This document shows, piece by piece, positions 16,646-18,397 of a DNA stretch of 64,000 bases. The notes beneath the pieces are model-generated. The model was given only the letters and a program-made list of their open reading frames with translations, did no database searches and was not told the DNA's origin. A program made the position numbers and the translations under genes. The stretch spans positions 1,436,814 to 1,500,813 of the forward strand of contig MU004240.1 of assembly GCA_010405405.1 (NCBI GenBank), given 5' to 3'. Numbering within the stretch: position 1 is the stretch's first letter; each line of letters starts with the position of its first letter. The DNA is from Microthyrium microscopicum. Lineage: Eukaryota.

Positions 16646-18397
16646 ATGTCTTCTGATCCAAAATCAGATACCACTGACGAGGTCATCCAACTCCTCGAGC
16701 AACTCTCGTGCTCAAGTCCTCAGTCCTCAGATTCTCCCGCTGAAGCCGTTCTCTCCTCCGGGCTACTGAAGTCCTTGAAATCGAGCCTCGTGCCTGAACC
16801 TTTGCCAATTGGAGGTCTTCAAGCATATGAATTTGCAGAGCACAAACATCTGGGCGACAGCGTCACACTCAAAGGGACTGACGTGATATCATTCAAGGCT
16901 CGGAACAATATTTACATCACGTATGGTCAAATAAACGGGCTTGCAGGTGACTTTTACGGAACCATGGCGCCAATTTGCAACGGTACGACTGTTGAGGACC
17001 AGGAGCACAGATTTATATATGCTTGGTGGACTCTTTTCAACAAAGACTCTGATGCGCATAGCGTCTTGAATCTGCTAAAGACAGAAGTCGACAGCTTCGA
17101 GAACGCAAAAACCCAACAAGAACTAGGCCAAGGCGTATTCTCGGAGACATATAAGCCCACGGGTCCATGGTCGGCGCAATGGACCACTCTCAGGACGCTT
17201 CTCACTACTTCAAGCTACTGGCGATTAGGAGCAGTCAATCTAGACCATTTTGGTGAGGATGCTGGAACTGCTTACAATACTGGTCATCGAGTCGCCCTAA
17301 AGCTTGCAGCTACCGCGTCCCCCAATGCCGATGCCGTACTGTCACCCAAGGACAGAGGGGACATCTTGAAGACTGCCTACACCATGAATGCTTTCGCGGA
17401 CCATTTTTTGCAAGATCGCTTCGCTTCTGGCCATCTGAGGACCCCTCGCCGCAAGCTTTTGGATACGCTTGACGTACAAACCCTCCAGTTGGCATCGTTG
17501 GACGAGCAGGCAAAGAACCTTTGCTGAAAAGTAAGTACTGGTTGAGTTATCACCATATCCAATCTCATTTCCTGCTAGGCTATGCACGACGAAGACAACA
17601 AAAGGGGCTTGATGGTACGCAGTCTCGACAGATCTGAGCCTTGGATGGTTTGCGGAGATGGCCACTTGCTCGATAGCAGAAACGGTGTTGCTATTGCGCA
17701 GTGCAAGCTATCTCTACAGGCTTCAGTCGATGAAGTATACGATGCATGGACCACTGGGTTCATTCCGCCTGATCATCACTTCAGGGCGTGGGCTCATGCT
17801 CCAAGACCCGATTCGATAAAAAGCTTGGACAATTTTGCACCAATGTTCAATGAAGAAGGCCAGATTCGCAGCCCTTTGGTGGGCCCAGGTCCCTTCACAT
17901 ACTGTGATGTGGGATCCGCTGAGTGGGTCGCTGTACGCCAACAAGTCAATCCTGGAGACAAAGACGATACTTTTCCAGCTCGACTACGAGTGGAGGCTGA
18001 AGTCGAAGAGGGTAGGGCGAAAGTCGAAGCCAGTGCTGCAAAATATGAGATGAAGGACGACCAAGGCGGCCAGCACCGACTGCTTGGTGGTAAAGTAGGA
18101 CTCAATGTGGGCGCCTACACTGGATATGATTTCGGTGTTCAAGCATATAGTTATGATGGAAAAGTCGGCAAGGCAACTGTTGGTTTGAACTGGGACACTG
18201 GTGCTGGGTACAGGAACGAAGGTGTTGAAGTCAAGGTTATTGGAACTGGTGTTAGTATTGGGCGAGAAACGGGCATCTCTATCTGGGGTTCCTCTATCAA
18301 ATTCAAGCTCTGGTTATCAGAGTTGGGAGGGAAATTCCCAATCGTTTTTATTCTCCATTATGATATCAGTGATATATTTGACCTCATTAGCACTTGA
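16646..18397 (+). pseudogene. Zinc-metallo phospholipase C-like gene (Pseudomonas PC-PLC / Legionella Plc family) fused to a C-terminal Gly-rich beta-strand domain; one in-frame TGA at 17525-17527
   Basis: Motifs FAEHKHLGD, TYGQINGLAGDFYG, NLDHFG, AYNTGHRVAL, NAFADHFLQDRFASGHLRTPR and MHDEDNKRGL. A 48-nt intron 17531-17578 (GTAAGT...CTAG) joins the two ORFs in frame, giving NLC*K/AMHDEDN, so the stop remains in the spliced message. Confidence 0.75.

Follow-up and report, generated by a model that had tools for sequence, protein, structure and literature searches.

In the solved zinc phospholipases C and S1/P1-type nucleases, which belong to one superfamily with an all-alpha catalytic fold and nine His/Asp/Glu zinc ligands, removal of a leader or pro-peptide leaves an N-terminal Trp residue whose free amino group binds zinc. 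Clostridial alpha-toxin is such a phospholipase, in which a helical catalytic domain is followed by a separate C-terminal beta domain. In fungi, the cytoplasmic chimerolectin CCTX2 is a leaderless protein that combines glycan binding with a non-lectin effector domain (PMC13324453). Here we describe a gene of Microthyrium microscopicum that occupies positions 16646–18397 of the forward (+) strand of a 64,000-nucleotide (nt) window (contig MU004240.1 of assembly GCA_010405405.1, positions 1,436,814 to 1,500,813; 'the window' is the whole stretch of DNA analysed, and its coordinates are used throughout). A reading made from the sequence alone had proposed that the encoded protein is a phospholipase C-like enzyme fused to a Gly-rich beta-strand domain. 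The account that we favour, and that we hold with about as much confidence as reserve, is that this is a recently inactivated, yet still transcribed, gene for a leaderless protein in which a target-binding module is attached to a distant phosphodiesterase of the phospholipase C/nuclease fold.

The two halves of the protein

The reading frame begins with an ATG at 16646 and closes with a TGA stop codon at 18395–18397. Coding exon 1 (16646–17530, +), delimited by translation and by an alignment with 87 fungal relatives, and matched without difference by the transcript contig described below, specifies a hydrophilic N-terminal extension of ~60 residues and the first two thirds of a phospholipase C/P1-nuclease-like domain. 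A 48-nt phase 0 intron (17531–17578, +; GTAAGT...CTAG), predicted from the sequence and visible as a gap in the alignment, separates it from exon 2 (17579–18397, +). The first part of exon 2 (17579–17959, +) holds the last third of the enzyme-like domain, from the MHDEDN motif onwards, and a linker; it is followed by an all-beta, Gly-rich amphipathic module (17960–18313, +; 118 residues as folded), the conserved core of which comprises approximately the last 60 residues and ends in KLW. Twenty-seven extra codons and the TGA (18314–18397, +) lie past the usual end of the family. The two-part layout proposed from the sequence alone was borne out: the peptide quoted for the Gly-rich segment, GGKVGLNV...KFKLW, is present in frame and letter for letter (~18089 to 18313), behind the enzyme-like domain and a linker predicted with low confidence. 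The first 40 residues are hydrophilic and, as had also been stated, no signal peptide was visible on inspection. A second copy of the gene was not found within the 64-kb window.

Neither half of the protein matched a Pfam family at E ≤ 1, and sequence searches with either half returned no relevant PDB chain. The read-through translation (with X at the stops) matched 87 proteins at E ≤ 1e-3 among 7,999 candidates; all those with a named source are fungal, and four of the 87 bear the automatically assigned name 'phosphatidylcholine-hydrolyzing phospholipase C'. Residues D102, D200, H201, H214, D252, H253, D257, H263, H314 and E316 (read-through numbering) are invariant in 39 sequences, and E65, H66 and D317 are conserved in at least 90% of them. 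H253-x3-D257-x5-H263 has what we take to be the spacing of the H-D-H zinc ligands of the Bacillus cereus phospholipase C and P1 nuclease. A conserved aromatic residue five positions before the first conserved His (Y..AEH) presumably corresponds to the W1...H6 spacing of P1 nuclease, and not to that of the B. cereus enzyme.

The fold was predicted for the closest intact relative, P0003 (526 residues, 46–50% identical to the window protein), using an 83-row alignment (predicted local distance difference test score, pLDDT, 80.1; predicted template-modelling score, pTM, 0.74). Residues 1–49 were of low confidence, a helical domain spanned residues ~50–400, and a low-confidence linker (401–427) led to the beta module (428–524). 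Foldseek found nothing in the PDB at E ≤ 1e-3. When an exhaustive aligner was run over 48,161 chains, the six best matches all came from the zinc phospholipase C/S1-P1 nuclease superfamily: alpha-toxin (1olp; Z 7.7, root-mean-square deviation (rmsd) 3.2 Å, 146 residues aligned), the B. cereus (1ah7; Z 7.3) and Listeria (8cqm; Z 7.2) phospholipases C, two nucleases (8qjl, Z 6.6; 3w52, Z 6.0) and S1 nuclease (5fb9; Z 5.7). The next chain, an unrelated one, scored Z 5.2. All six alignments start at residue 50 of the model and span the entire catalytic domain of the matched chain. Since this list is coherent and the His/Asp/Glu columns are conserved, the best reading of the N-terminal domain (~340 residues), as modelled, is that of a distant member of the zinc-dependent phospholipase C/S1-P1 nuclease fold. 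The full set of His/Asp/Glu columns suggests that in the intact relatives this domain is most likely an active metallo-phosphodiesterase. Where the solved enzymes have their N-terminal Trp, the superposition places an internal Tyr (residue 50 of P0003), which follows the low-confidence stretch; because this aromatic residue is internal, the ~50–60 residues before the domain, predicted to be disordered, may be a pro-segment.

The C-terminal slot of this enzyme family is variable. Among the 87 relatives, the fungal fucose-specific lectin PF07938 occupies it in 33, galectin PF00337 is present in four (three of which also have PF07938; P0014, for example, has both a fucose lectin and a galectin), FG-GAP-type repeats are found in two, and the remainder have no recorded partner. 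Of these relatives only P0003 and, partly, P0004 (a partial record from Aureobasidium melanogenum) have the beta module, and P0090, which represents a 90% cluster of eight members, is the second-exon product of another enzyme-module gene predicted on metagenome contigs. No Pfam lectin family was found in the window protein itself; its paralogues and the relatives of its module carry them. Since the module sits in the slot filled by a fucose lectin, a galectin or FG-GAP repeats in the paralogues, we favour reading it as a target-binding module, with a lipid or a glycan as its probable ligand.

The module is itself the mark of a wider family. A phmmer search with window positions 17960–18394 against 1.84 billion representative proteins returned 77 proteins at E ≤ 1e-3, seven of them at E ≤ 1e-10 (best 5e-23), with the common core ...GL..DTG.g....vE.KvLGTG.S.GR..G.S.FG....f.LW. 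In 59 aligned sequences, G95 and G97 of the 118-residue query are invariant, G75, G81, G101 and S107 are at least 90% conserved (the window protein keeps them all), and residues 36–118 show a strict alternation of hydrophobic with polar or small residues. The best-matching stretch ended at the W of KLW in 45 of the 77 proteins, whose median length was 154 residues; the match lay at most two residues from the C-terminus in 46 and at most 13 in 68. The window frame departs from this pattern in the 27 codons that follow the module: a tail of more than eight residues beyond LW was present in only 10 of the 77, two of these being tandem forms. No Pfam family covered the module in the 31 proteins scanned, and no NCBIfam family did so in the six scanned. 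Judged by this conservation, the module is a real, unnamed family with 77 representatives, nearly always C-terminal and either alone or behind lectins.

The suggestion that the pattern resembles small proteins found outside fungi proved right. Members occur in many teleosts (Siganus, Dissostichus, Sparus, Aldrovandia, Trachinotus, Polymixia, Oreochromis, Amphilophus, Lates, Poecilia, Etheostoma, Scomber, Nibea, Plectropomus, Sphaeramia, Dicentrarchus, Paramormyrops and Scortum), in the bivalves Mytilus coruscus and M. edulis, in one dipteran (Bradysia) and in three fungal phyla (Orbilia, Mycena species, Coprinopsis and Linnemannia). Fish genomes hold several paralogues (the seven members of one 90% cluster belong to a single species), and the fish proteins P0091, P0095, P0096, P0114 and P0118 contain two or more modules in tandem. 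None of the named members has a functional name, and no signal peptide was seen in those inspected. A protein atlas returned only unnamed clusters, one from Chordata and some from Bacillota (scores 0.92–0.94), bacterial membership being a candidate assignment. Other domain partners, a list of which the sequence-only reading had called for, were found, and they are of the lectin type: CVNH in P0125, P0145, P0148 and P0220 (the order in P0148 being DUF5648, FG-GAP, CVNH and module) and ricin-B in P0146. Two animal records join the module to a GIY-YIG domain (at the cut-off) and to a reverse-transcriptase fragment, and these may be mis-joined gene models. A profile search for longer fusion proteins gave one match among 7,999 candidates, which is weak evidence, and the list of partners is incomplete.

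Mytilus proteins P0208 and P0218 and fish proteins such as P0183 and P0198 also have in common an N-terminal stretch (..IDTFDRPG...YA..G.YA.G..NKPG.RIPKAG.YA.AGVG...) that is not present in the fungal members. Such a likeness across phyla is striking, and may derive from transfer, contamination or strong constraint.

When the module was modelled with AlphaFold2 (59-row alignment), pLDDT was 85.0 and pTM 0.66 (79.5–85.0 over five models, in pLDDT), with nine predicted strands, four of them 13–16 residues long; the P0003 model shows the same strand layout. With 77 homologues and a fold predicted at a pLDDT of 85, the segment is not the orphan, structureless tail that the sequence-only reading had allowed for. 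Foldseek with this model found nothing in the PDB at E ≤ 1e-3. With the exhaustive aligner no chain reached Z 8, and the three that reached Z 5 were all Lpt beta-jellyroll lipid carriers (6mjp_G, 9dor_C and 6mit_C; Z 5.6–5.0, rmsd 3.8–5.3, 74–90 residues aligned, identity 2–7%). Outer-membrane and designed transmembrane barrels, allene oxide cyclase, dirigent and fatty-acid-binding-type barrels followed at Z 4–5, and gasdermin and RCD-1 pore rows appeared only at Z 4.1–4.2 with an rmsd of 11–12 Å. A prediction of a two-copy complex gave scores of 0.00 and 0.00, but did not use the alignment and speaks neither for nor against self-association. We read the module as a small meander of antiparallel strands, closed into a barrel or folded as a sheet, that is hydrophobic on one face and has no clear relative among known folds.

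No description of the enzyme-lectin family, of the module or of the fish gene identifiers was found in searches that covered a collection of open-access papers. The module is undescribed as far as Pfam, NCBIfam, the PDB and that collection show, and the enzyme family has been annotated automatically yet is uncharacterised. Although neither Pfam, NCBIfam nor the PDB has a counterpart of the module, it is found again and again in fungi of three phyla, in many teleosts and in mussels, often behind lectins; once it is named and characterised, hundreds of proteins now labelled 'hypothetical' could be annotated.

Transcription and the in-frame stop codon

Six public sequencing runs hold the stretch, four of them from one sample that is possibly the source of the window. 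The contigs of four runs were compared over positions 16400–18600: X1 and X3, which may come from the window's source; X5, from another sample (study P2), whose run kind was guessed as RNA; and X6, from a third study (P3). The X5 contig (1,994 nt) skips two GT..AG intervals, one at ~16510–16575 and the other at exactly 17531–17578. The former is a leader intron (16510–16576, +; 66 nt, GT..AG, with a cut that may shift one base either way), and the latter is the predicted coding intron. The intervals are kept in the DNA contigs of X1, X3 and X6, that of the leader in X1 and X3. Apart from them, the X5 contig has no differing letter from 5′ of 16400 to 18283. The skipping of both intervals in this contig shows that the gene is transcribed and confirms the predicted intron. 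The contig stops within the beta segment, 30 nt short of the codons for KLW. Splicing is correct, and the transcript, far from ending or being spliced out before the beta segment (an outcome considered in the sequence-only reading), reaches into that segment. The X6 DNA contig spans 17455–18167 without any difference. Positions 18284–18397 are covered by no contig from an independent study, and the tail beyond KLW rests on X1 and X3. An upstream open reading frame (ORF) in the leader (16583–16633, +; ATG, 16 codons and TGA), read from the sequence, lies inside the transcribed stretch covered by X5, is in frame with the main ORF and leaves 12 nt between its end and the main ATG.

The enzyme domain is interrupted by an in-frame TGA (17525–17527, +), situated two codons before the donor site and 5′ of the conserved MH.ED motif. 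The sequence-only reading had hinted at it in speaking of a 'repaired gene', but had underplayed it. In the 38 relatives that can be compared, this position is always an ordinary residue (Ala in 30, Ser in seven and Val in one). The letters of the TGA are identical in X5, X6, X1 and X3, and since the same TGA is present in data of three studies, it does not stem from the assembly; the three data sets agree at 100% and possibly represent one strain. A product ending at this codon would have 293 residues and, because the stop lies 5′ of the invariant MH.ED motif, would lack part of the putative metal site. At its other end the window frame is also unusual, running 27 codons further than P0003 and P0090, which end at LW. 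It fits best that the window copy is a recent loss-of-function allele that is still transcribed, from which the full-length protein is probably not made. The interruption makes this locus less valuable, but leaves the value of the family intact.

Three explanations involving the TGA were considered and discarded. Repeat-induced point mutation (RIP) was ruled out as the cause of the stop, the gene having no RIP signature. Selenocysteine at the TGA was set aside, no Sec machinery being known in ascomycetes. Restorative adenosine-to-inosine (A-to-I) editing was set aside as well: in fungi it is described for UAG (TAG) codons, in a report whose main text contains 'TGA' or 'UGA' 0 times (PMC10776026), and here the codon is TGA.

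Proposed mode of action and competing explanations

In the intact relatives, the leaderless protein would be stored in the cytoplasm, its helical domain acting as a zinc phosphodiesterase. The C-terminal slot would decide the destination of the enzyme, with lectins taking this role in most paralogues and the beta module in the window lineage. By recognising a lipid or glycan on a foreign or damaged membrane, the module would bring the enzyme to its substrate, a role modelled on the C-terminal beta domain of clostridial alpha-toxin.

A number of observations tell against this account. With respect to the enzyme, every structural Z is below 8, which for helical proteins may, as the aligner warns, reflect mere common arrangement; phospholipases and nucleases are nearly tied in Z; and the models were built on a 46–50% identical relative rather than on the window protein. 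In addition, a profile of 25 relatives found no phospholipase C or nuclease chain in the PDB at E ≤ 10, the Pfam families Zn_dep_PLPC and S1-P1_nuclease matched none of the 25, and no Pfam, NCBIfam or PDB sequence match backs the assignment (0 families at E ≤ 1, for the two halves as for 25 relatives). The label 'phospholipase C-like' stands as regards the predicted fold and the metal-ligand-like columns, but not as an assignment by sequence or as a choice between two enzyme types that match almost equally. The N-terminal domain might instead be an S1/P1-type nuclease, as its fourth to sixth ranks (Z 6.6, 6.0 and 5.7), about one unit from the phospholipases, and the aromatic-to-His spacing (Y..AEH), presumably that of W1...H6 in P1 nuclease, would suggest. 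The three best matches, however, are all phospholipases C (Z 7.7–7.2), and the names on four relatives, albeit automatic, are those of phosphatidylcholine-hydrolyzing phospholipases C, which makes a nuclease somewhat unlikely. As to the inactivation, the window protein keeps 65 of the 68 columns that are at least 90% conserved in 38 relatives, the gene has no frameshift and no RIP signature (composite index −0.73, versus +1.4 in the AT-rich block described below), it is still transcribed and spliced, and a weak alternative donor that is compatible with the frame, GTACAA, lies at 17474, 5′ of the TGA. All of this is what might be expected if the gene were functional despite the TGA, whether through read-through, in-frame skipping of the stop by means of the donor at 17474, re-initiation at the ATG six bases after the stop (TGA AAA GCT ATG in the spliced RNA) or RNA editing; the presence of the TGA in the data of three studies, hence no sequencing error, could be added in its favour. 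However, in the sole spliced contig the canonical donor is used and the TGA retained (contigs drop rare forms), the TGA-A context differs from what we take to be the read-through context, TGA-CTA, and the donor at 17474 is without consensus; its use would delete a stretch with a Cys conserved in 33 of 38 relatives. The three data sets, being 100% identical, may also amount to one strain only. Restorative A-to-I editing in fungi is described for TAG codons (PMC10776026). None of the four rescue routes is supported here, and a functional gene appears distinctly improbable; a recent loss-of-function allele remains the preferred interpretation.

With respect to the module, its structural matches are weak (none at Z ≥ 8), and fusions of lectin and module without the enzyme exist, in which the module could equally be the active part. 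The latter favour the main rival, in which the module is a membrane-damaging warhead that oligomerises through its amphipathic hairpins into an inserted beta-barrel pore or an amyloid-like assembly and is served by its enzyme and lectin partners, much as the sequence-only reading had supposed in speaking of a pore-forming, oligomerising or amyloid-like module. The strict alternation of hydrophobic and polar residues over ~80 residues, the long predicted strands (13–16 residues), the position of the fungal module behind pure lectins (CVNH in P0125, P0145, P0148 and P0220; ricin-B in P0146), the tandem copies in fish proteins, the multiple fish paralogues (seven in the 90% cluster of one species) and the transmembrane and designed transmembrane barrels among the weak matches (Z 4.2–4.8) are all consistent with it; in the known fungal chimerolectins, moreover, this position is that of the toxic part (PMC13324453). 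On the other hand, no pore-forming family stands out and Foldseek found nothing at E ≤ 1e-3; the gasdermin/RCD-1 rows (Z 4.1–4.2) have an rmsd of 11–12 Å; a compact monomeric beta domain is predicted with confidence; ~100 residues is small for known beta pore-formers; and several kb around the gene contain neither an NLR nor a partner gene with a matching motif. A warhead is accordingly not the role that we would expect, and no test made here supported that part of the sequence-only reading. Alternatively, the module might be a new carbohydrate-binding (lectin) domain, making the protein another enzyme-lectin chimera like its paralogues. The same slot holds lectins in 33 + 4 + 2 of the 87 relatives (with some overlap), stacks of several lectin domains are common in fungal defence proteins (e.g. 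P0148 and P0014), and fungi, fish and mussels are rich in cytoplasmic and innate-immune lectins; but there is no convincing match to a lectin or carbohydrate-binding module (CBM) fold (CBM66 only at a Foldseek E of 0.29 and a TM-score of 0.14), nor is a sugar-binding motif known for the module, and we think this improbable too. The target-binding role, for a lipid or a glycan, is the one retained.

A bolder proposal, for which we see only a small chance, is that the KLW module spans the opisthokonts (from Mucoromycota to Ascomycota and Basidiomycota, teleosts and bivalves) and acts directly on membranes as a small beta pore-former or lipid extractor. If that were true, it would be the weapon of defence proteins that lack a leader and form a hidden class, comprising fungal lectin-module and phospholipase-module chimeras together with small, multi-copy effectors of fish and mussels. 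The module is at any rate a possible new effector or targeting principle, with a potential bearing on fungal defence and on the innate immunity of fish and molluscs.

Genomic setting and comparison with known systems

The gene is flanked by two ORFs, 14754–15707 (+) and 18938–19963 (+), that have a short motif in common (...RF.F.G..GW.AL..F...IG; BLASTP E 7e-7 over 39 residues). A match to DUF7730, below threshold, was obtained for the second, and the two weakly related DUF7730-like ORFs are possibly a lineage-specific expanded family. Further upstream lie two divergent long ORFs, 1–4658 (−) and 7978–14358 (+), whose motifs, read by eye, are those of the two fatty-acid synthase subunits (alpha and beta). 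Downstream, an Rtt106-like histone chaperone middle domain (ORF 24481–25038, +; E 3e-21) and a VTC domain match just above the cut-off (ORF 28780–30039, +; E 4e-5) represent ordinary housekeeping neighbours. Among the neighbouring ORFs examined (within several kb) no NLR gene was found, and no short motif common to the gene and an adjacent NLR gene, of the HET-s-type amyloid signalling kind, was seen among them; the module itself, at ~100 residues, is predicted to be globular. The neighbours offer no clue to the function of the gene. The window is part of a chromosome of a filamentous fungus, and its introns are short (48–66 nt). An AT-rich block at 44000–50000 (GC 0.23–0.32) bears a strong RIP signature (TpA/ApT 1.71; (CpA+TpG)/(ApC+GpT) 0.31; composite index +1.4, versus −0.43 over the window as a whole); it shows that RIP operates in this genome, and is itself probably a repeat degraded by that process.

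Of the systems already described, the pore-formers of the natterin/aerolysin type resemble the module in their patchy spread over fungi and teleosts and in their fusion to lectins (PMC13433851), but no sequence or structural match was found, and an aerolysin-type domain is about twice as large as the module. The Lpt beta-jellyrolls and small up-and-down barrels have, like the module, an antiparallel meander with one hydrophobic face (Z 5.6–5.0); the Lpt proteins are, however, bacterial and periplasmic, the identity is 2–7% and the scores lie in the range of a common arrangement. Nothing points to common descent. The S1/P1 zinc nucleases (5fb9, 3w52 and 8qjl) have in common with the enzyme-like domain the superfamily fold (Z 6.6–5.7) and, presumably, a similar aromatic/His spacing; they differ in their lower scores and in being secreted glycoproteins, whereas the window family is leaderless and has partners of the lectin type.

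The zinc phospholipases C (alpha-toxin 1olp and the Bacillus and Listeria enzymes 1ah7 and 8cqm) provide the best structural matches to the N-terminal domain, over the full catalytic domain, and presumably have the same H-x3-D-x5-H spacing in their metal ligands as the conserved His/Asp/Glu columns. They differ in that no Pfam or PDB sequence match links them to the window family (identity is ~13% over aligned residues), which in addition has a helical insertion of ~100 residues, no signal peptide and an internal residue in place of the N-terminal Trp. The order of the domains in alpha-toxin, helical and catalytic first and beta second, is that of the window protein; the 1olp match, however, covers only chain residues 2–246 and not the PLAT/C2-like, membrane-binding domain that follows them, and the C-terminal domains are probably unrelated (the module's own match list does not contain 1olp, which is not proof). 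The fungal cytoplasmic chimerolectins, for example CCTX2, are similar to the paralogues and to the relatives of the module in being leaderless and in joining glycan binding to a non-lectin effector domain (PMC13324453); the window protein differs in having no recognisable lectin, and neither its enzyme-like domain nor its module is the effector domain of CCTX2. Its architecture is a variant of the enzyme-plus-binding-domain theme of alpha-toxin and the fungal chimerolectins, and the systematic pairing of enzyme and lectin in its family points to a modular, toxin-like toolkit.

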